The notes under the pieces: model-generated
Seen by the model: only the letters and a program-made list of their open reading frames with translations
Database searches by the model: none
Told to the model about the DNA's origin: nothing
DNA from: Botryllus schlosseri
Lineage: Eukaryota
DNA length: 64,000 nucleotides
NCBI GenBank assembly: GCA_051294905.1
Contig: CM119372.1
Coordinates: forward strand, 35,342,001-35,406,000
Reading direction: 5' to 3'
Made by a program: the position numbers and the translations under genes
Shown: positions 22,701 through 52,500 of the stretch, in pieces
Layout of the letters: every line of letters starts with the position of its first letter
How positions within the stretch are numbered: the first letter of the stretch is position 1

Positions 22701-23582
22701 TTAAAAAATATTACATGATGTATGGCAAAGGAGTATCCATGATCTTGTTATTGCCATTGCAATAGACGTCAGTCCAATTCCGACAAACATGAGCCTCTTC
22801 CAAACTTTGCTATCATCGAAAGCTGCGTTATCAAAAAATCCTACAGAACTGTCCTGAAACAAAGAAAAAAATGTAAGGGTTCCTAATCTTGCAGAGGAAA
22901 GTCACCGTACTTGCTAGGTAATTCAAAGCTCGGAGCGCTTGGTCTGTAAATTTCTGTGCCTTATGACAAAATGTGAATTGAAAACCGAATTGTGAAGTGC
23001 AAGCTAAGTTTCATTATCGATAGATGGTATTGGCTCTCGAGAGCAGATACACAGTACCTCAAGCTAAACGATAATTCCCAAATCCTTATCAGGGCATGCA
23101 AAATCGCTTACCCATCCTCCATTTTCCCCTATCCACTTTCGTCTTCTTCTACCGATGTAATTCCCGACTGACTGTATGATACCTTCTATATTATCACCGT
23201 GATGCTCTTCCTCGTTTTTGCGAGCAAGAATGCTACCCAGCACAAACACAGATACAATCCGACCCCAATTTTCTTGGGTATCTTTAAAAATTTCATCAGC
23301 TATCATCAGAAACATCCGCTCATCCGCAGAATATTCTTCATATTTTTCATCGACTTCAACAATAGTGTATCGGAGACGTTTAGAGATTGCGTTTACGACA
23401 GTTCGATGTCGCTCGAACATTTCATCACCAACTCGCCGTAAGGTTGCCTCCGCATTCGTATTTGCTTTAACGCTTGGTCCGTCTAGTTCGTACATGATAA
23501 AATTCCTGGCCAAGGAATATGCCCCGGATATAATATCATCCTTTTCTTCAGTGACCGATGGTGATACTCGTAATAATTCCAT
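22701..23582 (-). CDS. Multi-domain Bcl-2 family protein (Mcl-1/Bcl-2-like), 207 aa; exons 23582-23112 and 22853-22701
   Basis: BH3 LRRVGDE, BH1 ENWGRIVSVFVLG, and BH2 WIGENGGW|D split by a GT-AG intron at the family-conserved GGW|D position. Exon 2 encodes a C-terminal hydrophobic anchor (VWKRLMFVGIGLTSIAMAI). Confidence 0.92.
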
Positions 23583-23691
23583 GATTTGAAGATAACAGCG
23601 AGTCAGAGCTCATTCAGATATCTAAGCTAAGCTACTTTGAAAATCAGGATCCAAGGATTTGCTAATTCATTATTATGAGACACTGATGATG

Positions 23692-29523: not shown

Positions 29524-29805
29524 ATGCAATTCGTGTTGATTTTCCAACATCGATATATCACTGTGAATGCGATAACGTCAAGTAAGTCAAGCAATGTGTT
29601 ATGATTGACTTGGGTGTATAAATTTATGGTGCAACCTTGTCAGTATTTCTACTTCCGTCGAATTGCGGAACGGTGCAGCCCGCGGACGTTGGATTAATTA
29701 TCCGATCAAACGAAAACGAAAATTATACGATCGGCGCCGAGAATTGTACATTCGTGATGACAGCTACGTCGGCCTCTCATCGGTTAAGGTTCGATTTCAA
29801 CACAG
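29524..29805 (+). pseudogene. CUB-like domain exons (29524-29581, 29644-29805), probably decayed
   Basis: A phase 1-1 exon encodes NCGTVQPADVGLIIRSNENENYTIGAENCTFVMTATSASHRLRFDF, matching the CUB N-terminal pattern. 62-nt GT-AG intron upstream; no clean downstream AG exon. Confidence 0.5.
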
Positions 29806-32792
29806 GTAAATATCAATTTTATTTGTGATTGGTAGAACCAATCTATTTAAGAAAATAGGCTGAAGAATTGGGTTGATCGGGCTGGGATACATTCGATCCA
29901 CCAAGCTTCAATCATTACGGCTCGGGACTCCCGAGATGCAATGAAGAAATCTCCCCAATTTACAATACAGATATTATACTGATGCACTGCAAGCTAGTCA
30001 ACAGCTCAATCATTCCTTCAAAACCAAATACAAACTGCAGTCGCCACATTCAACGCATAATGTTCCAACCACGCTCAAGATTCTACGGAGTAGCATGACG
30101 TTATTTAGAATCAGGTTTGATTCGACTCCCCGATGTGTAACGAATACGGCGGTCCAACAGTCTATAATTTTCTGACATCATGCTTCCACTATTAGTTTCG
30201 TCGATACATCGTTTTTACAATTTATTACAATGGATGCATATCCCGTTCATCCTATTAGCAACTTACATTCGCTACCCCAATTGACCCCCTCCATCGGTGA
30301 GTTTGGAATGTGGGGTAAAATGTCCATTTACTCATCGATTGATTTAAGTACACACACGCGGTGGTGCAGGTGGTAATCCGCAATAAGCACCAACTAACTT
30401 TTCAATTAATATATTAATAAATTTATCTAGCCTCCCTCTAAAACCGATGCCAATTTTTCCTGTACCGCAATTATGTAATATTTCGTAATAATTTATCTGT
30501 CGAATAGGAACAACACTTTGACTTTAATACTGAAACGTTAGAGGTTTAATGTAATCTAAACATTTCCTTATGGCGCAGGTTGCTCCAGGATTGTGATTGT
30601 ATTTACCAGTTCTGCTGTGGACCCAGTAATGATAATACTACACTCTAAATTTAGAAGTGTTGCTCAACCCGGAAAATTGAACACGATTTGTGATCCAAAA
30701 TTGAACACTTAGAAGTGTTGCGAAGTGTTTAAATTTAAAGTGTTTACCTAAACAAGTGTTCAGTCTCAAAGTGGCTGGTTGACCTGTCACCGGAACGCAG
30801 GGCTCAAAATGAAATCGGATTTTATTGCTTCATTAATAAATGCACTTATAACACCCAACCTGGGTGAATATTGAATAAATACGTGCAAACATTCAAATTT
30901 CCAATAGCTGCTGTGACAGGGTTTTATAAATTCAAATCAGCAATTGAAACGGTTTCCGGAATAGTTCATGAAATCACCAACATCACAAATGATTCAGAGC
31001 AAACTCACTACAAATATCATGCAACTCACTCAATCATGGGAATGAAAACGATGCACTGGGATAGTGATAACAAGATATCATTTAGTGTCTTAACTTTTCG
31101 TGGCAGGGGCATGGAGTCAAATTCATTGGTTACGTCCATTAGCAGAAAACAAGATCAACGCAAATCATTACAACTAATGGAAAACGTATCAAATTATGGT
31201 TTGTAAATTGCAAAGTTCATTATTAACAAACAAAACAAATGTATCAGTACCACTTCCACTACCAAGAAAACCAACCACAAGTATTTCTTAATTCTTAATG
31301 AAATTGGGCCCGCTAACCAGGCAACAAAAATATCCTAGTGCTCGCATTACAAGTATTTATATCAGGGTAATGCCTATCACTTTTAGTTTAAACAACAAGA
31401 ATGGTTTCTTCGATTCAATACAAATTTTGCAGATTTATAGAAAAGATTTTTGTTGAACTTTACCACAGTGTGCTGCAAAAAAAATGAAATCTGGAAGTCA
31501 TTACGGCAGTGGTTCCCAGCCCCTCCTTTATGATAGCAAAAAATATCACACACCCCTTATCGTCATATCTTAAAATAAAAAACAACCAGAATGCTAGAAA
31601 TCCTAACGGAAGGATAGTTTGTGGGCATGGAAGTTAATGGCTGCTAAGGAGAGAATAGTCCAATATGAAATTCTGGCTATGCAAAGAGAAATAGCTATCG
31701 CACCGCGTCAAAAAAATTCAGTTGACTGCAGTATCGCGCGCCCCTTCAAATGCTTTCACGCCCCCAGTTCGAGAACTCCTCGTTTAGGATATGATAACTC
31801 CAATGCATAGCAGCTCAAAATGTCAACAATCTTCCTGAATGCTCCATCTTTGCCGAAGCATTTTTATATTCTTGCGATCAGCTTGCAACCAAGGTTTGAT
31901 GAATCTTTGCTTCGAGGCGTGCCATGGCGGCTCCGGCTTTTTACTGGTCGACTCCGAGTGGTGCTTCTTGAAAATATGATGAAATACCAAAGTTTTGAAT
32001 ATGTCAAGGAAAATTCTAATTTTTATGCAGAAATAAATAAAAATATTTCAGATAGGTAGGTTACAGAAGCACGGGAAAGGCGCTCGGCTACATGTGAAAT
32101 CCTATCACTGAGTTAGAGTAAGACTAAAATTAGGAAAACGACTAATAAAAATATCTGTAATCAGGTCTGTATTTTTTTCTATTCGGCCATTTTGTCATTT
32201 ACATTAACATGGCAGACATTGCCAGGCAACAGTGAAAATGCAGAAATGTAACTTTGAATGAAATCCATAGCAAAACGTTGCAGGTCTTTCTAAACTTGTA
32301 TGGCCCATAAAACAGAAAGATTACCTGATTCAATGATAAGACATGCCCTCGGAACTTGAACATATATTCGTTTGTCACTCCATTTGGCTTGAAGAAGAAG
32401 GCAGTTGACTTCATCAACCTCATTTTGCTGAAAATAAAATTGATTGCAAACAAGATCAGACAATAAATATAGCAAAATAGATTGTATTGATGGGGTTAGA
32501 ATCGCTGTTTCTATGGGTTCAGATTTCCATTATGATAATTGACATAGGATTTACATATAACTTTTAATCTAAGATTATATAGCTGCTTTGAATTTAGACG
32601 AGAAATATATCAGACAAAGGACACTTCGATTGTCTTTAGTGCAAAAACTTTGTTACATCTTATCGAAGGTGTTGAGAACTTTTCCTTCATTGCAGGAATT
32701 GTAACTGTTGTCAATCATTTAAAATCCTTCCTTCCTGATTAAATTTAATTAATGCAAATTGGAAATTCTCCTAAATTGATGTTCACCTAGTG

Positions 32793-34465
32793 CAGGGGCG
32801 GGCAACTTCTCCAGTCGGGGGCCGGATATAGGAAAATTAAATACTTGGCGGGCCGGATTGCTGAATCGATACATTATTCGCCCATTTATCCACATATACA
32901 AGGAATAAATCGTATTTAATGAATGTATTTTAACGACAGCAATGTAACTTCAAAGCCATTTCTCGCCAATAATGACAAAGACAATGTGGATTTGAGAACA
33001 GCATTGTCATACAGGCACCACTATGTTTGCTTCTCTCTGATCGATCACCACGGTGCAATCCCTAATTAAGATTTCAAGGCGTTCGATAAGCCCGGTACTA
33101 CAAATTCACCAATATATCTCTTCATTAGGATTTAGTACAGGTATGACCAACCTTTTTGCCATTCACGGCCGCATTTCGACTACTCATGTAGCCTACGGCC
33201 GCATTCCAGGGCATAGTCGTAATGAACTATCTGGACGCCAAATACACATGTTATAGTGTCCATGTCCTTTTCCGGTGAACTCCGGACTTATCCGTTTAAT
33301 CACATAGGCTTACTATACGCACTGACTTCGCGAGTGGTCACTGGTGACTGGTCATGGTTATGTTATGGGCCGTACATAATCGCGCGAAGCGCGAAAATAT
33401 TTTCCGATTCACCTATGAATTTCGTCCCAAATAATAGTATTTTTCATATTATTTCTCATCCGATGTCATCAGATTCAACTGTAGATTTGATGGAGGGTGT
33501 GTTTTTCGAAAATTTAGGACAAGATATCAATGATGATGCATCTTCGGGTGGGCCCATTATAATTAGTCACTTGGTTGCATGCTATTATTTCTTGACCTAC
33601 CATCAAGATTGTCCGTATAGTGAGGAGTACAAGACTCCGAGTTGGTATTTCTATATGAGGCGCATCATTTTCCTCTGCTGTTCACGTCTGTACTGTGGGG
33701 CTATGATTGCAAAGGGCGCCACTATATTAAAATCGATAAACGAAGTCACATTGAATCGCGCGCAGCGCGAAGAAAATTTCAAGATTGATTAGGATCTCTC
33801 AAAAAATCGAGACTCAATTTGTAAATTCAAATTGCATGTCGATGGCCGCCCGCACATACGGTACTAATTGAATTACTTGTCCACAAATTTCCCTTCTACG
33901 GCCGCAGGTTGGCCACCCTGGTTTAGTAGGTGACGAGATATAGCGTGGTTGTTCAACTGTGTGGCCTATTTTATCTCGATATTGAATTCATGCGGCCCGC
34001 GGCCTCTACAAAATTTGAAAGTGGCCCGCGACCCGTTTCGAGTTGGCGACCCCTGGTATAAGCGATGTCTTACAAAAGCCTAGAAGTGTGTCGTGCTACA
34101 AGTCGACGGTTACGGAATCAAAAATATGAAATATCGGCCTAGTGTAAATGACCATTGTAGTCGACAAACACCATCATTACCACAAATGACATTAGGGTTG
34201 AGTACATCGTAAATGCCGATAATGCAAGTCTTCTCGCTTCGACTAACTTACGAGTAAGCACCACCCTCGCTCACTGCGCAGTGCGCATACATGTGTATAA
34301 TAACATACAGTCACTAAAATTTGCCGCTTACGCAAGTGGCAGGAAATCTCTGAATACTGGGGCCGCGGGCCACATTATCATGTAAGACAGAAAACTGTCC
34401 GCGGGCCGGACAAAATCCCTTCGCGGGCCGGATCCGGCCCGCGGGCCGTATGTTGCCCACCCCTG
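32793..34465. mobile_element. Buster/Charlie-like hAT MITE with nested elements
   Basis: CAGGGGCGGGCAAC ... GTTGCCCACCCCTG termini; perfect TSD ACCTAGTG. The empty site (single ACCTAGTG) is visible in the other duplicate arm at ~43411-43418. Confidence 0.93.
33138..33920. mobile_element. hAT MITE nested in 32793-34465
   Basis: CAGGTATGACCAACC ... GGTTGGCCACCCTG termini; TSD ATTTAGTA/GTTTAGTA. Internal sequence related to ~8930-9200 and ~18150-18480. Confidence 0.8.
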
Positions 34466-35441
34466 ACCTAGTGCGTTATAGTTCAGTAAGCAATAGCTCA
34501 AATACAAGTTACACGAGCTCATTACGCTCAACTACACCTCTGTTCAATGTATACAGATGAAGAAGCCTTTTTCAGCTCATATCGGCTCTACTAGATAGTT
34601 TGTGAGAAAAGTAGGACTGCAAAAAACCAGCACAAATGGTGATATATAAAATTAATAAATAGGCTTACATAATCATACGTTTCCATGGGTTCTTGAGACA
34701 AACGTATGTATCGCATAAGATGACTGCACCGGGGAAAAAAAATCCGTTACGAGTGAGTCCTCACGTCACTGTCAACATTGTCTGATAGCGCAGGTACAGT
34801 AGAACAAGAGGGCTCTTTTCAAGAAGTTGATATCAGTTGGACAAATGCTGATACTTTGATATAAGCCATACATATGTCTCAATTTGGAAATCACCCCTGA
34901 CGTAAAAGGGATGAGAAAGTATCACTAAAGAGAAGTGCCGCTTTGCGGATTATGATAAACCTTAACTCGTGCTAGCCTAACGAATACAAAACCTTACTAA
35001 TTCAGTGCTACAATAGCTCAGAGAAAGACACGTTTCACACAATGTCTTGTTCAATTGATACCATCGCACACAAATAATTCGTGGAATAATAGGCAGAACT
35101 AATGAACATATGTGTTCAAATATTCATATTGCTATTTATTCATAAAGTACACAGTGCAATGTCTTCATATTGACCTGAATATTAATACTCTGAAGACCGA
35201 GAGAGAATTCTTAGGTTTAGGGTGACAGTTGCCTGACGGAATGTCTCAGTTCAATAGGGCATGTGCAGTATTGGTGGGGGTATTGCACCTTGAAAATCGT
35301 ACACAATTTAGGAATGGTTGTAGCTATATCAAAAAGTTTTGAAACGAGCCTGATAAAAAAAAAAACAGATGTGTGACGTCATAACTTCAGCGTGCGTTGT
35401 GTGTAAGAAGCGTTGGTAGTAAAAACATTGATGGCGGAGAA

Positions 35442-36202
35442 TAGGGATGGTGTGACCGTGAGGTTCACGTTCGTGTTCTGTATGTGAACCTCACAAATTT
35501 AGAGGTTCACGTTCACAAAGTAAATCTTGGTAGGTTCTTCACTGTGAACCTCTACATTTTACATTTACATTTTTTGACGTCATTATACCTTCGGACCACC
35601 CAAGGCATGGCGCTGGCAGCATGAAAAATCAACAGTAAAGGATCATACATATACCTTGCCAATCTCGGAAACTTTACGTGATTTGTTACAAATGTTTGCT
35701 CCAAATAATCAGCTTTCTGTTAGTGAATATTTAGTGACTCTCTTCATGTGAGCTTGACCCGCAATCACACCACATCAAGAACGAAATAAACTACATTTGA
35801 ATTGTAGATAGTCACTAGTCAGCGAATGATGCTTATTCAAATAAGGTAATTGGCGTTAGCTTATATTTTCTTGCAAGTCCTCGTCGAAATTGTTGGCAAA
35901 GTCACAGAAGATAGTGATTTTATTGGATTATTATAGCATTTGATTTCTCCAGTTTCTTCATTTGGTGGTGTTTATAAAGCCAACATGTAGGCCTACTTCA
36001 GCATTGTGGCATAATGTGGCATGAATCGTCGCTAGGTATCTTGTATATTAATATAGGCTATCCCTTCACTGAAATGTAGGGTTGGTATTAGCAATGTGCC
36101 GTCACGCGACGTCATAGGTTCACGTTCGCGTTCACACAGAACCTTTCAAAAAGGTTCGCGTTCACCCTAACCAGAACCTTTCAGGGGTCCACACCATCCC
36201 AA
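35442..36202. mobile_element. hAT MITE with GGTTCACGTTC repeats
   Basis: TAGGGATGGTG ... CACCATCCCAA termini; TSD GCGGAGAA/GCGGAGAG; related fragment at ~18580-18920. Confidence 0.82.
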
Positions 36203-36929
36203 GCGGAGAGCATAACGATAGGATATTCGGATGAATGCTGATCGACTGATTAAAACGTGGTGCATGAAGTTTGATAGGAATTGGAGTAATGATTGTCTCG
36301 AGTCGTCTGGTGAAATGTTCAATCCAGCGCGGTAGATTGCCACGATCTTCTGATTTTAATCAGACGATTAGCATTCTCCTCAATATGCTAATTTTATGAT
36401 TTCCAACTCTAAATATTGAGATTTGTGGAACATGTGGAAATGGGTGGATGTTAGATGTAGTCGAATTCGCCACAGTCTCTATGTAGTTCGACTCGTGGAT
36501 ATGAAGCGACCGTCATATTAAGATTATGACTCAAACACTATGACTTGTCACAATACTGTGCTGTATCACAAATATCGTTATATCGCTCACAGAGGCGAAT
36601 TTGAGTGTTATAAAGAGTTATTTTAAATAAAAAATAGTTTGATAACGATATATTTAGAACATGATAGCGAGAGTTTATGTAGCCTACTTATCGTGCGCGG
36701 TTATGTTGGTAATTGAGAAGTCGAATTGTATGAGTAACAGTGATGAGCGAAGTCTGCTTTTCGAGACTCCGAGTCCCTCCGACAACTTTGGTCTCTGAGG
36801 CAAAGTCCCTCCGACTCCGGGCATCTCAATCCCAGACTCCGAGATAACCCGCAGAATCTTGTCCAGTCTCCGAAACATCCATATCGGTAGAGGTAGTTTT
36901 TCAAAATCATTGTCGAAGAATCCCAATCG

Positions 36930-37565
36930 ATGTTTTCGATAGCCTGTCTGATATTCAGACCAGTTTTTTTAGTATCCGTGAATTGCCGAACAGTCGCAAC
37001 ATCACTTCTGAGAGTGAAGTTCTCTCCAACAAAATGGACAGTCAAGCTAATAGAACTGCGACCCTTTAGATCGGTCCACATATCTGGGTTGATGCCAGCC
37101 AGCCCATAAGACTTGATAGCAACTCTTAGTTCCTCTGACAGCTTCTGCTTCAAAGATGAAGCCTCCTCATCCAACTTACGTTTCGCCGTAAATCTGGATG
37201 GCAAAACGTCTTCTGCACAACACCACGGCAAACCGGCACTTATACGGTATTCCCCACCCAGCGATCAGTGTTCCCCATGATCACCTTCTTCTTCGATTTC
37301 TCGCATACTTTTTTGTTGGAAGAAAGAAAGGAACTTTCTTCAACTGCGATCAATTCTTCTTACACGCTTCGCTATGTCTTCGAAGATGCGACGTACCACT
37401 TGTCGACTTGTGATGCTTTAGCTGAACATTGCAATTTTTACATCTCGCAAACCCAGTATACTGGCCGTTATTATCATGCAGCATCAGAGTGAAATCCTTC
37501 CACACGTCACTCTTTTTCTGCGTCTTTGTGGGTAACCCACTTGACGTCGACGGTGCTTCCGCCAT
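36930..37565 (-). pseudogene. Ac-like hAT transposase, 5' half (BED zinc finger to first catalytic Asp), frameshifted and 3'-deleted
   Basis: KKSDVWKDF...ARCKNC....GTSHLRRHSEAC (BED finger), LPSRFT, and DMWTD..RSSISLTVHFV spread over shifted frames. Confidence 0.88.
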
Positions 37566-39215
37566 TATATTAAAACGACGAAGGAAGACCAGTCAGTTCG
37601 AACTAACTACCACTAACACCACTGAAATCGACGATCACATCACAGGTTTCAGTAAATTAAGTCCCGCATCGCCATGAAACAGTTGATGGAACTGCACTGC
37701 GCTAAACATACATGATGCATCACTGACGCACCGATCGGCGCTCCTTGGAGTTGACTAAATGACTATTGACTAGTGAGAGTGACTTCCAATTTTGAAGCTG
37801 ATACATGATATCTGGAATTTGGAGTCTGAGACAGACCAGCAGCAGAAACTTGATTGCGGTGCTGATTTTTCTTATCACATCAAAGTCATTTTTCAATCAC
37901 ACCAAACATTACATGACGAAAATTCAGAAGAGTTCTGGATGACTGACTACGTCAATCAATATTGAAGGAAGCGTAGTTGAGTTGATGCGAGCAGAGCAAA
38001 GCAGACGGTTGTAGTTATTTAGTGTGGCTGTTCAGAAATTCGGAATATTTTGTTTTTACAGGGTGAAATTAGCTTACCTTAGTGATTTATGTATTGTTGA
38101 AATCTTTAAAGAGGGCTTAGATGCTGGTATGCCTCTGTGAGCGGATCTTACTAGCGAAAATTCGTCGCAATGTCATTAAATCATTGTAACACATTGCATA
38201 AGTTATTATTGTTTCCATCCAGAAACTTGCTTGTTGTATGTACACTCTAAATCCGCAAGGTCGTATTGAACACTTCATAACACTTTTTTCTGCGTACAGA
38301 CACACTTTTTAGGCCTATAAACGCATTGGGCCATTATCGTCGCAACGCTTCTGCGTATTTCTCCGTTTACATGTAACACTTTGCCACTGCGGCTTACTTT
38401 CAAGCAAATTTATACTTGATAATTTATCATCAATTTCGCATTCATAAACTATCGCTACGTTTGGGGATCACATAAAATCATGGTATATGTAAAATAATAT
38501 TGTTAAACTGACCAAACCAACGTTTAAGGGTATTATTTCAATAAAATATACATATGTCCCTGTGACGCAGAGCGATCACCACCTTCGTTACGGTAGAGTG
38601 CGCTCGATTTCAGTTTGGAATTTGAATTGGTGGTTTGTCAGGCTTCAGGCAGAGAGTAGGGTACACGAAAAGACTTGGAGGAATGGATATATTGAAGCAG
38701 TTGCTGCTTATTGATGGCGTAAAGGATCATAACATCCATTTACTGTAAGGTATGGAAATGCGGTAAATGTTATTGAATATATGTAATGTGAGAATAGTCA
38801 TAAAATGAGCTCGTTTTGACATTGCAGTAAGGTCGTTAGTTTTAGATGTTTTAGCAGGCTACTGATATCCATTATTCATATGAATGTTCTTTAGATGTTT
38901 TGTAGTATATGATTCGTCTGACCTTATTGCTTGATGATCGAGCTTCGAATCTGATAATAGACCAGGCAGCGACCACGTCCAGTACTATGGTACTGATGGG
39001 AAACTGCTATCGAACTAACTTTTTTGATATATAGATAAGGGATGTTCTCTCTATCCACACTGAAATATCCCTATGTAGGCGATAATGTTGTCCATTGTGG
39101 ACAAGTACTGCAATGTCAGCAATTGAATACCGGTATGACAGTCATGCAACGGTAATGATTGTTTTTCAACTGCAACACATTTTACACTACTGTTTCTTCC
39201 AAGTGTTAACTAAGG

Positions 39216-40591
39216 CAGTGGTTCTCAACCGCCGGTCCGCGACGACATTCCTGCCGGTCCGTCAGGTATATTACAATTTTATACCTTAATTCCAAGATGC
39301 AATGGTGAAGGTTTGACCATTGATAAAATAAATAAAACATCAAATTTTAAACTGATTCATAATTTCGGGTGGTAAAATTAGGCCTGGAAACCTGTTCGAT
39401 TTGACTTAAGGTTCAAGATGTGTCATTTGAGGACATGCGAGCGACAAGTACAGAACAGATACGAGCTGACTCATCGCTAAACAGCGCAGTTTGCGCGATC
39501 ATTCGTTTTCGATTCATTCATTTTGTGCAGGACTGTAAATGGGGCAGCCCAAACCGCCCAATTGGAGAGGGGCCGAGCTTGAAAAGGGCCCAAAATTCTT
39601 TTGCAAATGAACATATATCATAGCGTATTTTTTGAAACTTTTTCCAACATTTTTCAATTTCTTTTCGCGCTTTGCGCGATTTAGTGTCTCTAATTGTCTT
39701 GCTTATTAGGTGCCCTTCTCCGTGGAAAACGCATGATTTATAAAAATAGGCATTTTGGCGTCATCCATTACCGCGCCAAGACGTACCAGCACACAATGAA
39801 GTTTTGGTTAATATGAGACTTTCGAAAGGTGTGCCAAAAATGCGGCAGTGAGAAAACCGATTCAATCATGAATGAAAATCTTCGCTATTGTCGCGATTAA
39901 GCTGCATAAACTCTCTGCTTACACCGAATGGAATGAATGTTCTCCCAAGTACTGGTGAAGCATCCATTCAACTGTCGGGTCTGGGCGGGGGCGAAGCCCC
40001 CGGAAGTTCGGCTTATCGCCCTGTGGGCTGACCAACGTTTTTTGAGGTGGGCTGACGAAGTGCATTTTCGGCCAGGATTTGCGGATGGCCGGTATAGCTG
40101 CTGCCTGCTGCATAAGGTGTTTTCTTGCGGCACGCATTGTATTCGTAGTTGCCGGAGTAGCCTGCGTCCAGTGGCAGTGAGCAATGAGCAAGGTAGCACG
40201 ACAAGGTTCTTGGTTCGACTCCGAAACACTTCTTCGCTCGATATTGTCAAAGTGAAGGATAGTATTCGAGTTGGCGTGGTCGGTTAAACCTCGGCCTTCG
40301 GTGCGAAAGACTGTAAACGACTCTTCGGCGGTAGCAGCACGTTTTTCTGGACAAGGCAATTTAACCTCAACTCAGCAGACTCACTTCCATAAACTAACAT
40401 AGATGCCATCATGAAGATAATTAATTACGATCCAAACCCTCTAAATGTCACTCTCCAGCACCATAAATTGGACAAAAAACGGTTGCATACTCTACATTTT
40501 GGCTTCATTTCAGTTTTGAAAGTTCACCGGTCCGCCAGACATTTTTTGAAATTTTACCGGTCCGCGAGGTGAAAAAGGTTGAGAACCACTG
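39216..40591 (+). mobile_element. Buster/Charlie-like hAT deletion derivative with inserts
   Basis: CAGTGGTTCTCAACC ... GGTTGAGAACCACTG TIRs, CCGGTCCGCG subterminal motifs, perfect TSD AACTAAGG. Confidence 0.92.
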
Positions 40592-40594
40592 AAC

Positions 40595-41453
40595 TAAGGC
40601 GATTTTTTTGAAATGTAAAAATAGGTCAAAATTTTGTCAAAATTGTACCGTTAGGTCAAAAAGTGCCGAAATTGTTTATAAAATCAATTTTTTTTGGCAA
40701 CTTGCATTTCGTTTGTATCATAGATGATTGCAGTGTCGGTGAACTTATCATTTTACAATTTACATCTTGTAGCCTACTTTATAGTCCTACTGTTGCAGAC
40801 GGACCATCGTCTGCTCATTGTGAATCATAAACTGTCAAATGAAACAAATGCTCAACGTAGCCTACTGCACTATCCTAACTGAAGCAAGACTGCGTGGGCA
40901 TTGTTTTTTCTATTGGAAACCGTATGATGAAAAATTGCTATGTTGACAGCTTTGTCGTAATGAGAGAGAGAGAGAGTGAGTGCAGTGTACGTACAACTTC
41001 AGTGTTGCCAGCCAACAACTGCCGCTGTGAACGTTCTTTTTTCATCCTTGCCAAGCTACTTAGTAAGGACAGACACTTTCTACCCGAAAACGTCTCAGGA
41101 AAGTATCTTTCGTTGTACTATAACAACGTTTTAATTATTTCTACCATAATACGAGATGTAACTAATACTGGAATTCTTCACGGGTCCAGATTTCAATAAA
41201 ATAGGGTTTTTTCATGTAAATATTTGTCAGTTTTCATGCCAAAAGATTTTTTTCCGGTCAAACTATCTCGTAAGAACAGACAGCTCCAGCCACAAATAAA
41301 GATAAGTACCGGTAGTAAAATTATAACATTATGTGAGAAACACCTAATTTAGGTACATGGGGTCAAAATTAAGTTTTCATCGTCAAAATATGTGTGAATT
41401 TGGATTTTTTAGTCAAAATCTTCCCTTTTTTAGGTCCAAAAATTCGCCCTTAT
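40595..41453 (+). mobile_element. hAT remnant with C-terminal dimerisation-region fragment
   Basis: LPANNCRCERSFFILAKLLSKDRHFLPENV (hAT 'ERSFS' region) at ~41000-41120; GTCAAAA subterminal repeats; TAAGGCGATTTTT / AAAATTCGCCCTTA termini. Confidence 0.65.
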
Positions 41454-41559
41454 AATAGCACAGCCAAAAAAACAATCTTTTCAACAAACCATGGATCACA
41501 AGGGGTAGTATTTGTTTTGCCCGATCCGCAAATTTGACTTTACTGAATTTATGTATTAT

Positions 41560-43420
41560 ATATTATGTATATGTATTGAAATTGGCTCATTTTTGAAATG
41601 TATTAGCTGTATGGAATACGGGTAAGAATCACGGTGTTTTGTAAGTGAACTGGTATATCCTTGGATAATGAATTTGATGCTGTTGCATTCGGTTATCACC
41701 GTGATAAAGATTTTTATGAATGTTTGCTGATAAAATTTCACTAAAATTGTTAACAATCCAGGAAGTATACTGCCTGTGCCAGAGTAAAATTGGTGGTAAC
41801 GTCATGTGCAACTTTCCATTCCATTTCCTAATTATTCTATGAAAGACACCCTTCTGTCATGCACAACTTATTGCAGAAAACAACAACTGTATCCAGTATG
41901 ATATCTGCGTGATTACTGAGTATATTTCATTTGAATTTCGAATTAAACAAATATTTTCTTTTCAATAGTCTTGGATTGATCCTCAAATTTGTCCAACTGA
42001 TGTCGACTCCTTGAAAAGAGCCCCCTGGGTCTACCGTGCCTGCGCTATCAGACAGTGTTGACAGTGACGTGAGGAGTCGTTCGTAACTGGTTTTGTGCCG
42101 GCACAGTTATCTTATGCGATACAGACCTTTGTCTCAAGAACGCATGGATACATGTGATTATGTAAGCCTATTTATTCATTTTATATAACACCATTGATTA
42201 TGTAATTTGCTGGTTTTTGCAGTCCTACTTTTCTCACGAACTATCTCGCAGAGTAGCCTACGGACTATTCGATATGAGCTGAAAAAGGCTTCATCTGTGT
42301 ACACTGTACAGAGATGTAGTTGAATGTAATGAGCTCGTGTAACGTGTACTTTAACTATTGCTTACTGAACTATAATGGGCTAGGTCAGTGGTTCTCAATC
42401 TGTGGGGCTGATCATCACCTCTCTTGCGCTTCTGTGACCTACCTGTGTGAAATATTTATATTTACTTCTGCATAAAATTTACAATTTTCCTTTGGTATTT
42501 ATCGTATTTTCTAGGAGCAGCATTTGGATTTGACCAGTAAAAAGATGGAGCCTCCATGGCACGCCACGAATCAGGGACTCATCAAGCCTGGGTTGCGGCT
42601 GATGGAAAGTATATGAAAAATGCCCTAATGTGCAGGTAGTATGTATTGCAATTGGCACCTTTTTGAAATGCATTTGGTGTTTAAAATACTGGTAAGCATC
42701 GCAGTGTTTCGTAATTAAACTGGTATATCCTTAGATAATGAATTTGATTCTGCTGCACTCGGTTACCTTGGTGATAAAGATTTTCCTGAATGTTTGCGGG
42801 TAAAATTCACTAAAATGAATAATAATCCAGGAAGTATGCTACCTGTGCCAGAGTAAAATTGGTGGTAGCGTCGCGTGCAACTTTCCATTCCATTATTTAA
42901 TTATTCTATGAAAGACACACTTCTGTCACGCACAATTGTATCTAGTCTGATATCTGCGTGAATACGGAATAGTTAGTTCACTTTTATTGCAAATTTTTGA
43001 AACAAATATTTTCTATTCAATAGTCTTGGATTGGTCCTCAAATTCGTCCAACTGATGTCAACTTCTTGAAAAGAGCCATCTTGTTCTACTGTGCCTGCGC
43101 TATCAGACAATGTTGACAGTGATGTGAGGACTCACTCGTAACAGATTTTTTTTCCCGGTGCAGTCATCTTATGCGATACATACGTTTGTCTCAAGAACCC
43201 ATGGAAACGTATGATTATGTAAGCCTATTTATTAATTTTATATATCACCATTTGTGCTGGTTTTTTGCAGTCCTACTTTTCTCACAAACTATCTGGTAGA
43301 GCCGATATGAGCTGAAAAAGGCTTCATCTGTATGCATTGAACAGAGGTGTAGTTGAACGTAATGAGCTCGTGTAACTTGTATTTGAGCTATTGCTTACTG
43401 AACTATAACGCACTAGGTGA
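41560..43420 (+). repeat. Diverged tandem duplication (~800 bp: ~41560-42385 and ~42640-43420)
   Basis: Colinear blocks recur ~1.08 kb apart, e.g. GTGATAAAGATTTT, CCTGTGCCAGAGTAAAATTGGTGGTA, GTGCCTGCGCTATCAGACA. Confidence 0.88.
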
Positions 43421-45586
43421 ACATCAAATTAGGAGAATTTCCAATTTCCAATTTGCATTAATTAAATTTAATCAGGAATGAAGGATTTTAAATGATTGTC
43501 AACAGTTACAATTCCCGCAATGAAGGAAAAGTTCTCAACACCTTCGATAAGATGTAACAAAGTTTTTTCACTAAAGACGATCGAAGTGTCCTTTGTCTGA
43601 TATATTTCTCGTCTAAATTCAAAGCAGCTATATAATCTTAGATTAAAAGTTATATGTAAATCCTATGTCAATTATCATACTGGAAATCTGAACCCATAGA
43701 AACAGCGATTCTAACCCCATCAATACAATTTATTTTGCTATATTTATTGTCTGATCTTGTTTGCAATCAATTTTATTTTCAGCAAAATGAGGTTGATGAA
43801 GTCAACTGCCTTCTTCTTCAAGCCAAATGGAGTGACAAACGAATATATGTTCAAGTTCCGAGGGCATGTCGTATCATTGAATCGGGTAATCTTTTTGTTT
43901 TATGGGCCATACAAGTTTAGAAAGACCTGCTACGTTTTGCTATGAATTTCATTCAAAGTTACATTTCTGCATTTTCACTGTTGCCTGGCAATGCCTGCCA
44001 TGTTAATGTAAATGTCAAAATGGCCGAATAGAAAAAAATACAGACCTGATTAAAGATATTTTTATTAGTCGTTTTGCTAATTTTAGTCTTACTCTAACTC
44101 AGTGATAGGATTTCACATGTAGCCGAGCGCCTTTCCCGTGCTTCTGTAACCTACCTATCTGAAATATTTTTATTTATTTCTGCATAAAAATTAGAATTTT
44201 CCTTGGCATATTCAAAACTTTGGTATTTCATCATATTTTCAAGGAGCACCACTCGGAGTCGACCAATAAAAAGACGGAGCCGCCATGGCACGCCTCGAAG
44301 TAAAGATTCATCAAGCCTTGGTTGCAGCTGATCGCAAGAATATAAAAATGCTTCGGCGAAGATGGAGCATTCAGAAAGATTGTTGACATTTTGAGCTGCT
44401 ATGCATTGGAGTTATCATATCCTAAAGGAGGAGTTCTCGAACTGGGGGCGTGAAAGCGTTTGAAGGGGCGCGCGATACTGCAGTCAACTGAATTTTTTTG
44501 ACGCGGTGCGATTTACCTCTATCTCATAGCTATTTCTCTTTGTATAGACATAATTTCATAATGGACTATTATCTCATTAGCAGCCATTAACTTCCATGCC
44601 CTCAAACTATCCACCCGTTGGGATTTCTAGCATTCTGGTTGTTTTTTATTTTAAGATATGACGATAAGGGGTGTGTGATATTTTTTGCTATCATAAAGGA
44701 GGGGTTGGGAACCACTGTCGTAATGACTTCCAGATTTCATTTTTTCTGCAGCACACTGTGGTAAAAGACAACAAAAATCTTTTCTATAAATCTGCAAAAT
44801 TTGTATTGAATCGAAGATACCATTCTTGTTGTTTAAACTAAAAGTGATTGGCATTACCCTGATATAAATACTTGTAATGCAAGCACTAGGATATTTTTGT
44901 TGCCTGGTTAGCGGGCCCAATTTCATTAGGAATTAGGAAATACTTGTGGTTTGTTTTCTTGGTAGTGGTAGTGGTACTGATACATTTGTTTTGTTTGTTA
45001 ATAATAAAATTTGCAGTTTACAAACCATAATGTGATACGTTTTCCATAAGTTGTAATGATTTGCGTTGATCGTGTTTTCTGCTAATGGACATAACCAATG
45101 AATTTGACTCCATGCCCCTGTCACGAAAAGTTAAGACACTACATGATATCTTGTTATCACTATCCCAGTGCATCGTTTTCATTCCCATGATTGAGTGAGT
45201 TGCATGATATTTGTAGTGAGTTTGCTCTGAATCATTTGTAATGTTGGTGATTTCATGAACTATTCCGGAAACGGTTTCAATTGCTGAATTGATTTTATAA
45301 AACCCTGTCACAACAGCTATTAGAAATTTGAATGTTTGCACGTATTTATTCAATATTCACCCAGGTTGGGTGTTGTAAGTGTCATTTATTAATGAAGCAA
45401 TAAAATCCGATTTCATTTTGAGCCCTGCGTTCCGGTGACAGTTCAACCAGCCACTTTGAGACTGAACACTTGTTTAGGTAAACACTTTAAATCTAAACAC
45501 TTCGCAACACTTCTAAGTGTTCAATTTTGGATCACAAATCGTGTTCAATTTTCCGGGTTGAGCAACACTTCTAAATTTAGAGTGTA
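43043..45586 (+). repeat. Second arm of the inverted duplication (inside the 9.7-kb hAT)
   Basis: Reverse complement of 30639-34845, lacking the 32793-34465 insertion. Confidence 0.95.
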
Positions 45587-46548
45587 TATTTCTCACAGAT
45601 ATAAAGGTAATATTGATGTAACACTTATTATCGATATCTCTCACTGCAAATTGCAAGTACGATGAAAGTTGCGAAAAGTTATCACGAAAGTGGTATCGGA
45701 TATTATCTTGTTTCAACTGATACCAACGTTGGGAATACATTTTCACAAAATGGACCTATTACTATGTTGAATGTCATCAGGATAATGGGATATATTCCGT
45801 TATGATCATGAACTTGCTGGAAGAATCAGAGTAGCTAAAGGTTTTACCTTAGGGAAGCCCCGCTGTATGTTGCTGATTGTAAATGTTTCGCACAATTACT
45901 GGGGTGGCATGAAAATCAGTCACCAAACAAATACGTAAGGAGGAATGTGACTATAGAAGACTGCAATGACAGCAACGTGGAAGATTCTGGAGATCCTATC
46001 TCATAATATGGTGACATTCAGCTGTGGATTCAAGGCAGGGAGCAAATGATGCACTGCGAATGATATTGGGCGCCTTTAATTTTGTGAACTACAGACACTG
46101 CTCAACGAAAATGCCTTGGTAGATCACTAGGTTACTCTCCAGTCCCCAATTGCAGTGCAGATGGCACTTAACAATCATTTTTGCATGTTACCCGTCATAT
46201 TACAACTTTACAAGGTGTCAGCTGTCTGTATTTTGGTTTGAGATCAATAGTGTCTTCTGGTCAGAGCTATCGAAAGATATCGGGGGCAAAACTTACAACA
46301 CTCCGGAAAACTCCGGAAAAATATCTGTAGTAAACTCCGAGCCCACCCCGAGTATCACAAAATTGGCAAAACTCCGCTCCGGAAACACTCCGACTCCGCT
46401 CCGCTGCTCATCACTGATGAGTAATACAAGTTTAGTTCTTATCATAGTGATAACCGATGTTGGTTGTGACGAGATCTTATATAACTATAACTATTGCGCC
46501 TTTTTGAAGGGTTCACATGGTAACTTCTACGGATGGATCTCGCGTCTT

Positions 46549-49500
46549 CTAAATTTCAAAGCACTTGTCTTCAATTCTCTCACGGCTATGACGAATGGTT
46601 ATGGCATCACCCGATGTTATCTCACCGAGACTCGACGATCTACGTCGGTTCCATTGTCGGCACAAGTCTCTCATTAGGATCAGATTTTCCTCGATAGCTG
46701 ATGCGAGTTTGTCAGATGACGTGCTTGAGCAACTGCGAAACGATGCGACGCAAAACGTGATGTCATGAGAGTGTGGATTGTAGGACACCCCGTATCCGTC
46801 CTCCACGACTGCACCGTAGCACATGAAGGAGTCCGACACTGTTGGTACCTATAAGTAAATAAAATAACTGCTAATTTAAAATTAATCTGTATTATGGAAC
46901 GTATTGGAAATTCTTATTCACGTAATTTTAATATTAAATTCATTAGGGGAGCAAAGTATTCTATTCGTTTCATGAATCATGGGAAAGAGACCTGAAAGCA
47001 AAAGAATAATTGCAATTCGCGACTTGAGTCCAGACATGGGGTGATTACTTCATGAATATAATCGATTGCGATTACGATTACTTCGGAATCACGCGATTAC
47101 GACTACGATTACGAATACAGCAAAATCAGGAAGTAGTCGATTACGATAACGATTACATTGGAAAAGTAATCACGATTACTCACGATTACATTTGTTTTGC
47201 TTCTTAGGACTATAATCTTAAATGATATATTGGTAGACAATACAAGGATTGCGATGAAAAGGCTTAATGAGATATCCACTGTCTTCATACATCATGCGTC
47301 ATTTGCTTATTACGTAATAATATACCAATTGCCCAACTTTATAGTGGATGATTTCTTGCACCCAACGATTTGCATTATTGCCAGGTCTTTACCTGCCGCA
47401 CCCCAAATTCCTTAATAGGGTGGGGAGCGTGCTCGAAGGGGACTCAAAAGTTTTTCGTAAACCAACATAAACTATAGAGTATTTTCGAGAATTTACTTAA
47501 TTCTTGAAAATGTTCTTCGAGCTTCGCGATTCAAATGTCTCTAGTACAGGGGTCAGTAACGCGGACCAAATGAGTCGCCCGCGGTCGCTGTAGCAAATAT
47601 CCAAATAAGAGATTTGAAAGTTGAAGCTGGCTTCATATGAGCAGCAGTTGAACATGGGTCGGCCGACCCCAAGGAACATACGATCGCAGTCGCTCGGGGC
47701 TTTGCTTGTCTTCGCCCACGCGGCGGCTCAACGGGAATCTATAGTTAATATTCCCGAGTCTCGACGCGGAGATCGGCACTTCGGCGCGCACTGCAGCAAC
47801 GCAACCGAGCCCGGAGGAGCTGGTGTGAGTCCCGGCGAGTGAGCGTTTTTGTTCTTGGTAAGGGGCGGAAACCCGGCCCAGTGCTCTGATTGTCTTACTC
47901 TAAGTGAAGAAATCCAACTGAACCCAGATAAACGGCGGGAGTAAGTAGTAACCCATCGGTCGTCGCAATAATCAGTAGGCCTACACACTACACAAGAAGT
48001 AGCTTCTCGTTTCAAAACGGTTGGTGACCCCTGCTCCAGTAGATAGCTGGGTTTGAAATGCATACCTCTTCCCCTCAAGAAAAACATGCATAGGCTATTT
48101 TGTGGGAACAGGCATTTCGGATCAGGTTATTGCCGCGCCACGATCCCACAACACACCAAAAAACATATGCAGTTTCGGCCAACACGCAACTCCACGGGAT
48201 GTGATACCAAAGAAATACCTTGGCCGAAACTTAGGGTATTCGTCCATTGTCAATAGCCGCGCTGGGTGGACGTGACTAATAATAACTCATGTCCTTCCAA
48301 TCTGGGCCCACAATCCAAATGCCACCCGACGCATCCACAAAGGAATAAAGTGATGACAATTTGTATGTGCGTCTCACGATAGATATTCTTTTAGTCTGCT
48401 ACGTTTGGGCGAGTACAATATCTTTTGAATATACAACAGACTGGAGGTCGCGAATTAACAACATACAATAAAGTAATTATAACAACATACCAGCTGCTAT
48501 GATTATGAATTACGTGCCCCAGCTCTACAGGGAAATCTGACACTCGGGGCTGAAAGAGGTTATAAATGAATAGTAATATAATGCTATCACCAATATTATT
48601 GACGAAATTCAGTTTTGAAAATTGACCAACGGTTGGACACGGGGACGAATTGCTGTTGTGGCTGAATTGACTGGATTGCTGATTCTAGCTAAAACCCACG
48701 CTAACATGTCAGGCTATATAAGCGGATGGTTATGGCTGCAGGTCCAAATGCTGAGTAATGAACTGTGAAATAACGATTTGCGCCCGTTTCAAGTAGTGTT
48801 ATGAGAATAAGATATAGTGAACATAAAAATTCTGCCTTCAACTTAATACATATACAGCGAGCTGCTATTACGAGAAACGGCTAAGCACGGCTCGCTTATG
48901 ATATATATCAGCAGCTGTTTATTTGTAATGCTTAGTTGTGGAAACTGCAATGTTTTATTCGACGAGAACAAAATTCCGAATCTTCGTCAGGTGCACGTGC
49001 GTACGTAGGCTAGGGCTCTTCAAAAATGACTTTTTTTCTCAAATCGTACTGGCTACTTGATAAAATTGTTAGGTTACCTAATTTAGGCCTACACAAAAAA
49101 TTTGGTTCAATTCCAGCCAGCAACCGCTTTGCTACAGGAGAAGAAAGTTTCTATTTATTATATAAAAATAAATGATAAAAAATTTAAAAATTTTCTGGTC
49201 ACCCCATGAAAGTGTTAGGCTATCTATAGAAACGATGCTCACCAAATTTGGTTCAATTCCAACCAGTGCAAGCGGAGTTATTGCCGTCAAAAAATTTGGA
49301 TTTGAATAAAATAGTATTTACGGTGACCACAACTATAATAAATAAACAAAGAATCGGTCACCGTAAATACTATTTTATTCAAATCCAAATTTTTCGACGG
49401 CAATAACTCCGCTTCCACAGGTTGGAATTGAACCAAACTTGGTGAGCATCGTTTCTATAGATAGCCTAACACTTTCATGGGGTGACCAGAAAATTTTTAA

Positions 49501-52500
49501 ATTTTTTATTATTTATTTTTATATAATAAATAGAAACTTTCTTCTCCTGTAGCAAAGCGGTTACTGGCTGGAATTGAACCAAATTTTGTGTGTAGGCTTA
49601 AATTAGGTAACCTAACAATTTTATCAAGTAGCCAGTACGATTTGAGAAAAAAAGTCATTTTTGAAGAGCCCTAACGTAGGCCTCCTGCTCGCCAAGCAGC
49701 AACGGTAAACTGCGTTTAACTAAGCACAACCAAACATCAATACATAAGTTACTATTTGAAACTATAGGCAGAGTGGTGATCAATATCCTGCTGCGAGGTA
49801 GGGGCTTCTCTAGTGTATTGATAACCTGATATACACCACGGGGGTTGTTCTTACAATCACACTACAATGTCCATCGCATGTCTGTTTACTATGTGTGGAT
49901 ACTTCTTACGCAATGACGAGCGGAGCTAATATTTCTGACGTAATAATGAGTCAGTGGCGTTTGAGAACAGACGTTTGTGCTACCGCTAAACTGGTATATT
50001 ATCTCATTCTTGTTCCCGAATGTTCAGTTTATGTCGTAGTCCTTGTACAAACAAAAAGTAATCGTTCTTTCACAAAACAAATCGATTAAATATTGGAAGT
50101 AGTCGATTACGATTACGATTACTTCGGATTTTTTTCGAATGTAATCGATTGCGATTACGATTACTTCAAAATGCTGTAATCGTCGCAATCGATTACGATT
50201 ACTAATCGCGATTACCCCATGTCTGCTTGAGTCACCACGAAAATTTTCGCGAAAAGAGTATATTTTCACACACAAAAGCTGCTACACTTAAAAAACAGAA
50301 TCTACCACATAATCCAGAAACTCAGTTCTCTAGGTGTCGATCGTATATTTCGTCGGACAACACAGTTTTTCCTTATGTGCTTCAATAATTAATAATGTGC
50401 ACAACGGTTTGAGCCAATCATCAAAAGCAATCGGAGTTTTCTTTCTCTGTATGTATCTCATCGCTAAATTTGCTCTTTTGGTTACTTTACGGTAGCGACG
50501 GGTAGGTCTTAAATTAAAGTTTTAAGTGTGTGAAACTCTTGGAAGCAAAAATTGCCCTAACAAGGTCAACTTTGTCAAACAGCAGCTAAATGATTCTGAC
50601 GAGGGATTCTATTGCACTCCATCAATGTATGTGTCATCGAAGTCACGAGTCATCGCATACTGACGCTCTTTGAAACTTAGGCACGTATTCCTTCGCTGTC
50701 TAGAAGCTTTCAAGTGGTCACCCACGGAACAAATTTGAGTCATTTGTAAGCCGACCCCATGAAGGAATTTCAGGTATAGGTCGACTGACATCATTTGGAA
50801 ATTTCGCAAAGGGTTAAGAATTGACGACATGTGACCTCAGCACCACAGGAATTGATTACAGTGCAACATCGACACTCGCGAAAATCGTTCAGCGGCAGTT
50901 CGGATACAGTAGCTTTCTTAGTAAAATGATCGACCCATCGATTCTATTGATCTGTATTCAACTCCTGCATGTTGGTATGCCAATAGTACTGAGCGATGCT
51001 GCATATATTTGGATAATGCAAATTCATTGCAATAACCAGTACAGAAGTGGCACTCAAAACCCGTGCTGTGATAAGCGCCACTGTCACGATTTTTTTATAA
51101 TAATAATAATAACTCTTGTCCTCATTCGCACAGTTTTAACTTCAGCCTGTTGACGTAAAGGATCAATCTGTTATGGCGATCCAGTGATATGCTACAATAC
51201 GTCGGTATATCGTGACTATATTTAGTTAACCCTATCTTTCATTCCGGGTTTATGATACGTGAATGGATATAAACCAATAGATGAATTATTCATTGAAGAG
51301 TAAGACAGAAAACAGCGTCATCGTACTATGAACGTACTCTGACTAACAGGTAGGTCTACTTCGTTTCTCACCTGACTCGTGGACATTGTGAAGTAATTGA
51401 AAATGTCGAAAGAAGGATCCGCAAAGATCTCGGGTTCTGGCATTCCTAGCTCTTTAGCAATCTGCAATTATTGTAAATCAGTATAAATTATAGGTTTTAA
51501 TAGGTTTAATGAAGGAAGGAAGGCGAAATAAAATTACTGAATTATTGATCAGGTAATTCGAGTTACCGGAGGGCTGTGAAGCTTTCAATATAAATACGTT
51601 GTGGCTCATTGTTGGAAAATATATAGTTAAATTATACAGAAAATTACAACTCTAATCGAGACTGAATCCAGACTAAAACATGATCGGATGAAACCATTAA
51701 AACAATGAGTATTCATGACTATAAGCTAGGCAAAACGGTCTCGGGATCATCCTGTTCGGCTGTGTGTGATTTCACAGGGTATTTCGAGTTGACACTATCG
51801 CTTTGTAATCCAAGAGCGATGTGCTATTAAACTTGAGTTATGTGGTTACTACAAAATACGTTATTTGTTACCACTTGACGTAAACGTTTGTTTGTTTTGT
51901 AACGCGTTTCTTGACGATGTAGCCCGAGTCGTCAATAAAACCATAGTTACAATCATGAGTACGTCACAATGTGATGACACAATAGAGATTATTCTTACTG
52001 TATATATACGGCCAATTGATTGTCCTAAGACCCGAAAATTCTAAAGGCATGGGCGACAGTTCAGGAACGCTCAGTGATGTGTATAAAACATGTTTTCAAT
52101 AAGGCTAAATCTACACGAGAATTGTTGCAAATGTGAATTTGGATGATTTCATCTGGGTTGCTGATGTCTAAATGCCTGCGTAGTACGTTATTTTAATAGA
52201 AAAACAAAACATATGTTCATCTTCCAGACCTGTCTCAATCCTAAGAGGTGACAATCAATACCACGTCCTGAAATAGCCGCGATGGTGTTGTCCGTTTGAA
52301 CTTTTGTGGCTCTCCGCAACAGCATCATATTACGGGCGTCCTGAAAGATGGATCAGTCAATGCATCAGTATTGAATAAAAACTACAAAAGCCATAAACCA
52401 CCAATTTTGCTTTTCTAGATCCTCCCTTTTTCGTTCTTAGACTTCTTGCGAGTTCTAAAGCTTGGATTGTGGCCCCTCGAATATTGTCCACTCGGCCGTG

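Follow-up and report, generated by a model that had tools for sequence, protein, structure and literature searches.

Among the systems close to the locus described here are the Pack-TIRs, of which 370, including 208 hAT elements, are on record across 100 animal genomes; their cargo is described as non-TE sequence of 100-5,000 bp, derived from a parent that is unique and flanked by no TE (PMC8277862). The opinion of an earlier note on this DNA, that Pack elements are little described in animals, is outdated by these 208 Pack-hATs. For hAT elements of the Ac family, the consensus of the target site duplication (TSD) is nTnnnnAn (PMC8961557). Furthermore, the CMCT clade has CA..TG termini and 2-5 bp TSDs, with TA TSDs in ESTA (PMC12730594), and a 2-bp TSD has been described for an EnSpm element of an animal (PMC4298943).

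The window, that is the whole 64-kb stretch of DNA analysed, contained 12 hAT-type TIR/TSD elements, several of them nested. The outer hAT unit studied here spans 9,679 bp from TIR to TIR, including a nested insert. It is bounded by perfect 11-bp TIRs, CAGTGATGAGC, at 36738-36748 and 46406-46416 (no third match in the window), and by a perfect 8-bp TSD, ATGAGTAA, repeated at 36730-36737 on the left and 46417-46424 on the right. Of the motif ACTCCG, the first 104 bp at the left end contained three copies and the last 112 bp at the right end six. All these features, already listed in the earlier note, were found again, and an 11-bp TIR with an 8-bp TSD appeared by chance in 0 of 30 resampled sequences. 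The left arm (36738..38242, minus strand) carries the 3' end of the element, a truncated transposase and its upstream region, and its last letters are the first copy of a TA duplication. The right arm (45585..46416, minus strand) carries the 5' end and opens with the second TA. Since the two arms are directly fused in other copies, the sequence belonging to the hAT itself amounts to 2,335 bp (36738-38242 plus 45587-46416), instead of the ~0.6 kb estimated before. The outer element is a member of a multi-copy family of ~2.3-kb, non-autonomous hAT elements of the Hermes/Ac type with an internal deletion.

The BED/DMWTD transposase relic reported earlier was located on the minus strand at about 36938..37565. 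It comprises the BED zinc-finger part and the DMWTD part with the first catalytic Asp; with a stop, frameshifts and the C-terminal two thirds gone, it leaves the copy without autonomy. The relic matched four Hermes chains (E 1e-4 to 5e-4), while the zf-BED profile match was weak (E 0.065). A word-index search with the DMWTD piece gave no homologue among 224 candidates, and the later full phmmer search gave 62. DBD_Tnp_Hermes was present in six of the seven relatives scanned, above the cut-off in five, and Dimer_Tnp_hAT in two; the relative P0001 was 90% identical to the relic and truncated identically. In addition, ATGAGTAA fits nTnnnnAn on both sides, which as a single TSD is weak evidence alone, and the 11-bp TIR falls within the short-TIR range of the Ac family (10-25 bp). 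The assignment to the Ac family was thus upheld by the TSD type, the Hermes matches and the domains of the relatives, as a placement by similarity and domains. Because both TIRs and the ACTCCG motifs are kept, the element could be mobilised in trans by an intact transposase. A search of metagenomes with the 20-bp hAT terminus gave two matches, in contigs of 66% and 50% GC, which were discarded as chance, the similarity ending at 20-22 bp.

What the earlier note had taken for ~8 kb of mixed cargo is one TIR element of 7,342 bp (38243..45584), which it had overlooked. This inner element has a 10-bp TIR, CACTCTAAAT, is flanked by a TA duplication (38241-38242 and 45585-45586), and carries AACACTT/AAGTGTT subterminal repeats at both ends: 11 in the whole element, of which three lie in its first 140 bp and six in its last 120 bp, with 0.19 expected per 400 bp. 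A 10-bp TIR with TA flanks is weak by itself, as resampled sequences gave 0.47 of them on average and the region contains another pair of this kind (40679-45297); the inner element therefore rests on the read data and on an outside copy. The joint 38238->45583 was found in all four sequencing runs and skips 7,344 letters, which equals 7,342 plus one TA. It was supported by three contigs in X1, a run that may be the source of the assembly (depth 42.3), by two contigs in X5, a run of unrecorded kind (depth 3,779.7), by 12 reads from eight starts in X23, and by one read in X21. Relative to the total depth at five hAT-arm sites, the X5 depth of this insert-less joint was 0.71-1.06; relative to a single-locus contig it was about 80-fold, summed contig depth not being equal to copy number. 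Moreover, the match of X1 record 4 starts at 38241 and is preceded by 234 foreign letters, as at the inner left end in another flank, and that of X1 record 3 ends at 38242. Every bin of the inner element was repetitive by run depth; the lowest exceeded the higher of the unique-flank bins 73 times in X1 and 16 times in X5. These data show that the 7,342-bp insert belongs to a multi-copy TIR family unrelated to the hAT and that it entered at a TA, which was duplicated.

A truncated copy of the inner element lies outside the hAT at 30641..34846 (minus strand), 3.4 kb from the inner element. It begins with the same terminus after a TA and matches 43042-45584, with 96.8% and 97.6% identity over 2,183 and 381 aligned bp, in agreement with the inverted outside segment noticed earlier. 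It carries a hAT MITE of its own (32793-34465; TSD ACCTAGTG). At 12 sites, the outside copy had the letter of the window at four and the read-majority letter at eight. A single foldback element from 30641 to 45584 was considered and rejected, as it would cross the left end of the hAT and break the TSD nesting.

Several older and younger parts were resolved within the inner element. A hAT-type MITE with a 15-bp TIR and the TSD AACTAAGG occupies 39216..40591, confirming a nested MITE of the earlier note, and X5 contained joints lacking it (39188-40592 and 39188-40604). Next to it lies a very high-depth repeat block (40592..41455, boundaries approximate) with short TIR-like ends, which includes the deepest bin of the element (40723-41093) and is probably an older MITE. 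The tandem duplication seen before (41570..44351, plus strand; copy 1 41570-42623, copy 2 42640-44351) is old, and its copies are ~80-81% identical. In copy 1, a ~30-bp MITE end at 42386 is followed by a deletion; this junction was seen as the joint 42414-44130 at a depth of 460 in X5, and therefore appears to be a family trait. A decayed hAT-type MITE at 44426..44717 (left boundary approximate) is shared with the outside copy. As for the exon-like cassettes of the earlier note, the splice-like signals were there, some stretches of the insert being bounded by AG/GT, while support for coding or splicing did not come from the Pfam, homologue and joint searches. The 98 stop-to-stop segments of the inner element (at least 40 aa) gave seven weak Pfam matches, none at the cut-off. 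The stretch 43765-43890, the single candidate exon searched individually, had no homologue, and its matches in the Atlas were hypothetical or low-share clusters. No GT..AG joint outside the MITE was present among the 15 joints listed, and Rfam gave no match over 29000-47000.

The inner element is likely of the CACTA/EnSpm type and non-autonomous, a placement that is a structural guess because no transposase was detected in it. Its CACTCTAAAT TIR reads CAC..GTG, its TSD is TA, and its removal in the reads is precise; AACACTT/AAGTGTT clusters stand at both ends, and subterminal repeats in this arrangement are a trait of CACTA elements. Literature searches on animal EnSpm elements (CACT ends, 2-bp TSDs) and on ascidian genomes did not turn up a description of this family.

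The host gene was closer to choline acetyltransferase (ChAT) than to carnitine acyltransferases (74.6 vs 44.3 bits for one exon and 64.6 vs 53.5 bits for another), and the best named match was a ChAT-like protein of Styela clava (73%). The ChAT exon at 46626..46848 (minus strand) ends ...RRSSSL, and a GT donor in phase 1 comes next, at 46625. The TAG at 46551-46549, read as the ChAT stop codon by the earlier note, is probably the splice acceptor of a 77-nt intron (46549..46625, minus strand). The putative last coding exon (46442..46548, minus strand) would add 35 residues and end with the likely stop TGA at 46444-46442, 17 nt from the TSD, in place of the ~125 nt between stop and insertion proposed before. 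No further exon was found in the window by tblastn with three ascidian ChAT tails (best E 0.18). An interruption of the ChAT 3' UTR by the insertion is plausible from the sequence, and likelier now that the stop has been moved to 46444-46442. AATAAA is indeed lacking between 46548 and 46425, as the earlier note stated; this is non-diagnostic, because the empty-site continuation (36737-36000) also has no AATAAA and a variant ACTAAA occurs at 46436. The RNA runs had depths of 0.97 and 0 over 46659-47000, too low to place the ChAT 3' end.

The insertion is polymorphic, some chromosomes having it and others lacking it, because an X5 contig crosses the site and is too short there to contain the element: in record 9, 36400 is joined to 46502 within 387 letters, where the empty site expects 414. 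In addition, X1 contained the insertion junction without substitution as well as a second haplotype departing at 36737. The exact joint 36737->46425, which the earlier note proposed to look for, was not among the 15 joints listed, 530 others lying outside that list. In the same record, 28 extra letters were considered as a ChAT frameshift, which was dropped, as a difference in intron length explains them without a broken gene.

Taken as a whole account, nested DNA transposons very probably explain the 9.7-kb unit. One ~2.3-kb hAT copy entered the DNA at the ChAT 3' end, where it generated the 8-bp TSD, and the hAT received the 7,342-bp TIR element at a TA upstream of the start codon of the relic. 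The tandem duplication and the older MITE remnants would be traits of the inner family, with the 1,376-bp MITE added later. The nesting may have taken place here at ChAT, and a local hop that involved the inner element and its truncated copy could have brought it about, a step of which we are less sure. Probably lying 17-25 nt past the real ChAT stop, the insertion would take the place, on this haplotype, of the 3' UTR or poly(A) region that the gene originally had. The earlier note had offered a small element that was inflated later as one of its options, and the insert-less joint of the arms in all four runs (in X5, 71-106% of the depth at five hAT sites) supports it.

A rather improbable alternative is that the inner element entered the hAT at another locus, after which the 9.7-kb unit moved to ChAT as a whole by means of the hAT ends. 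It would fit the intact hAT TIRs, subterminal motifs and TSD, the presence of the later MITE within the inner element, and the polymorphism of the insertion, which is hence not old. However, the insert-less joint makes up most of the hAT depth in X5, none of the 16 contig pieces listed, with over 100,000 more outside the list, spans 38242/38243 or 45584/45585, and a sister copy of the inner element is only 3.4 kb away. Moreover, high-depth X5 contigs differed from the inner element at 5/411, 10/360 and 13/365 letters, while the hAT arms differed from single-copy X1 contigs by 6-10%, which in this rough comparison suggests that the inner element is no older than the arms. Far less credible is the headline of the earlier note, a true Pack-hAT that captured host DNA through gap filling or template switching. 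The AG/GT-bounded exon-like stretches speak for it, as does a near-identical segment within 15 kb, a distance typical for single-copy Pack-TIR parents (PMC8277862). However, the supposed cargo is a multi-copy TIR element in its own right: it has its own TIRs and TA TSD, is precisely absent from other hAT copies, occurs in another flank, is repetitive in every bin and has no protein match. Furthermore, the sole candidate parent in the window, 30641-34846, starts at the terminus of the insert and is itself a TE copy. The joint 38238->45583 largely refutes this origin. An assembly artefact fusing repeat copies, suggested by the highly repetitive region and by a whole stretch spanned by no listed piece, has a negligible probability given three independent, perfectly nested TSD pairs and X1 record 1, which crosses the left flank/TIR junction with 0 substitutions.

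With the nesting of transposons, a call of a giant cargo transposon resolves into an ordinary arrangement, and exact termini are now given for two unnamed ascidian transposon families. At the 3' end of the acetylcholine-synthesis gene, the locus also varies in whether the insertion is present, and a naive ORF reading misplaces the last exon of this gene; if the allele alters the ends of ChAT mRNA, it would be a usable natural variant. If the composite is mobile, a non-autonomous animal hAT would be moving at four times the size of its family. A more far-reaching reading, which we consider unlikely but conceivable, is that the inner element is an undescribed ascidian 'Pack-CACTA' with amplified host-exon fragments, carried piggy-back inside a 2.3-kb hAT, the two moving as one 9.7-kb unit to within 25 nt past the ChAT stop, where they would form a segregating allele whose ChAT 3' UTR is new.

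Compared with the CMCT clade (CACTA/EnSpm, Mirage, Chapaev, ESTA), the inner element shares 5'-CAC..GTG-3' termini and a 2-bp TSD within the range; a transposase of the C(2)C / H(3-4)H DDE type was not detected in its 98 segments. Differences are that the description of ESTA comes from fungi and that the termini of the Hydra element read CCC instead of CAC..GTG. The TA TSD alone would also fit Tc1/mariner and PHISTA. The outer element resembles deletion derivatives of the Ac family (the Hermes/hobo group; Ds-like) in its 8-bp nTnnnnAn TSD, short TIR and subterminal motifs, and in a BED plus first catalytic-Asp region matching Hermes; in contrast, it represents a new, unnamed ascidian family, and the present copy is enlarged four-fold by the nested element. 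With the Pack-TIRs, such as Pack-hAT-N8_XT (Tan et al. 2021, PMC8277862), it has in common foreign sequence between hAT ends and a similar segment within 15 kb, but the cargo here, 7.3 kb long, is itself a multi-copy TE that has a TSD of its own.

The 11-bp TIR CAGTGATGAGC occurs exactly twice in the window, at 36738 (plus strand) and 46416 (minus strand), and ATGAGTAA, the 8-bp TSD, flanks it at both ends. Such a TIR pair with a TSD arose in none of 30 resampled sequences, which bears out the bounds that the earlier note had drawn for this outer hAT. A broken transposase relic starts with an ATG at 37565 and extends on the minus strand as far as about 36938. It matches Hermes, and Hermes DNA-binding domains and hAT dimerisation domains are present in the relatives of the relic. 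The related protein P0001 is 90% identical to the relic and its truncation point is the same, and the deletion is therefore common to another copy or allele. In the raw RNA of run X23, 9 molecules terminate at 37568, where the depth is 36; a pyrimidine-rich tract precedes this point and the ATG follows three bases later. This is possibly a splice or spliced-leader acceptor of hAT-family transcripts.

A second TIR pair, CACTCTAAAT, with a TA beside each copy, was found within the outer hAT at 38243 and 45584, and AACACTT/AAGTGTT repeats cluster at both ends of this 7,342-bp inner element. A 10-bp TIR with TA flanks occurred 0.47 times per resampled sequence, and with a CAC start in 0 of 30. Since the rate of 0.47 makes the pair weak by itself, the inner element was tested on reads. 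Four of the 24 listed runs were compared with 35900-47000 at 86% likeness: contigs of X1, which may be the source of the assembly, and of X5, whose kind is unrecorded and whose 131-kb contig suggests DNA, and raw RNA of X23 and X21. A joint 38238->45583, which omits 7,344 bases (the inner element plus one TA), was present in all four. Its depth in X5 was 3,779.7, about 80 times that of a single-locus contig; relative to the depths at five hAT sites it came to 0.71-1.06, indicating that most hAT copies are without the insert. The unit of the hAT family is 2,335 bp.

The inner element is likewise repeated. X1 record 4 passes from a foreign flank into it at 38241, and every bin of it lies far above the unique flanks (lowest 73-fold in X1 and 16-fold in X5, as summed depths that do not equal copy numbers); none looks single-copy at 370-bp resolution. 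The joints 39188->40592 and 39188->40604 represent inner elements without the 1,376-bp MITE (39216-40591), and the joint 42414->44130 (depth 460) falls at the junction of the tandem copies, which is therefore a family trait. RNA depth over the non-MITE parts was mostly 0-7, and a peak of 233 at 45175-45545 in X21 is probably due to transcripts of other copies.

Three insertions are shown: that of the hAT, which made an 8-bp TSD, that of the inner element at a TA, and that of the MITE, again with an 8-bp TSD. Trans-mobilisation by intact partners presumably drove them, and the nesting would have happened at the ChAT site. Transposition of the composite as one unit appears quite improbable. Capture of about 8 kb of cargo, one of two options in the earlier note, was not borne out: the note had missed the cargo's own TIR pair and TA, and the cargo is skipped in all four runs. 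No Pfam family scored above the cut-off in 98 inner-element segments, a homologue search with one exon-like stretch found none, and Rfam gave no match for the cargo region; host-fragment capture by the inner-element family may have occurred but has no support in these searches.

An inverted, truncated copy of the inner element lies outside the hAT (30641-34846). It opens at 30641 with TA and a terminus identical to that of the inner element, and its identity to 43042-45584 is 96.8% and 97.6%. The distance of 3.4 kb between the two suggests a local hop, but of 12 sites compared the outside copy agrees with the window letter at just 4. The outside copy holds a hAT MITE (32793-34465) that appears to contain two more MITEs (about 33138-33922 and 33942-34055), and a 53-bp MITE end (34847-34899) adjoins its truncation point, suggesting a MITE-linked deletion. 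Tandem copy 1 (42378-42386) and the outside copy (34458-34465) each have a hAT MITE, not the same one, at a homologous site centred on CTAG; this site is empty in tandem copy 2 (43411-43418).

The insertion is polymorphic, which follows from three observations. In X5 record 9 (974 letters), 36400 is joined to 46502 within 387 letters, 414 being predicted for an empty site, a case judged by span length; X1 carries the insertion junction with zero substitutions; and a second X1 haplotype, 10% divergent, ceases to match at 36737. Allelic divergence at 36253-36737 is very high, with 50 differences in about 484 bases between the X1 haplotypes.

The window comes from an ascidian, as the best match of its final ChAT exons is Styela clava ChAT (73%), followed by Ciona and Clavelina. 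Scores of these exons against carnitine acetyltransferase structures are lower than those against ChAT. The open frame of the earlier note terminates at TAG 46551-46549, which is probably not the ChAT stop. Conservation with other ascidian ChATs ends at RRSSSL; in 2 of 3 full-length ascidian relatives the next residue is E, and their tails, counted from this motif, have 127-146 residues. The GTGAGA donor at 46625 is the hexamer of the previous ChAT intron's donor, and splicing to the AG at 46549 is predicted to add an in-frame E and 35 residues up to TGA 46444-46442. Judged from the sequence, the 77 nt at 46549-46625 (minus strand) are probably the last ChAT intron; four other ChAT intron candidates have 58-70 nt. 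The spliced tail frame aligned weakly with the S. clava and Clavelina tails (1 and 4 of 300 shuffles as good, respectively) and not with that of Ciona (64 of 300), while the other two frames aligned with none of the ascidian tails (94-296 of 300). With the stop re-placed, the TSD probably lies 17 nt past it. The sole poly(A)-like hexamer between them is ACTAAA at 46436, and from the usual spacing its cleavage would presumably fall at about the insertion point. No further ChAT exons were found beyond the outer hAT, though the tail is of low conservation. The outer hAT is likely an insertion in the ChAT 3' UTR. Between 46502 and 46786 one X5 contig is longer by 28 letters, and there is a break at 46605 in an X1 contig, which suggests that the last intron is polymorphic in length.

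The window holds 12 hAT-type TIR/TSD elements. One of 4.8 kb (1544-6330) contains a nested 1.1-kb MITE (4801-5943) and long transposase-like ORFs (2078-4413) with no significant Pfam match. An ACTCCG array of five motifs at 1-145 may mark one terminus of a related hAT. ChAT introns contain an almost fully palindromic 663-bp MITE (49011-49673, TSD ACGTAGGC) and a tRNA-Ala(AGC) gene (53042-53115) on the strand opposite to ChAT. A Bcl-2 family gene lies between about 21931 and 23609 (minus strand; Pfam E 7e-22 for 23064-23609). Run X7, labelled as another organism, contains 0.25 of the words of 36950-46949, which may mean that the run is mislabelled, comes from a close relative or has repeats in common with this region.

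Termini and TSD are a basis for classing non-autonomous elements (PMC4455052), and the Ac target consensus is given as nTnnnnAn (PMC8961557). The CMCT clade is described as having CA..TG termini and TSDs of 2-5 bp, and fungal ESTA as having TA TSDs (PMC12730594); a Hydra EnSpm has a 2-bp TSD (PMC4298943). By analogy, the inner element would work like a non-autonomous CACTA/EnSpm element, the class assignment being structural. Tan et al. (2021, PMC8277862) report 370 animal Pack-TIRs (208 hAT, four multicopy) and define them by non-TE cargo below 5 kb with a unique parent, a definition outside which the 9,679-bp unit falls. The region 36738-46416 is a real structure of ordinary biology, that is, nested non-autonomous DNA transposons.
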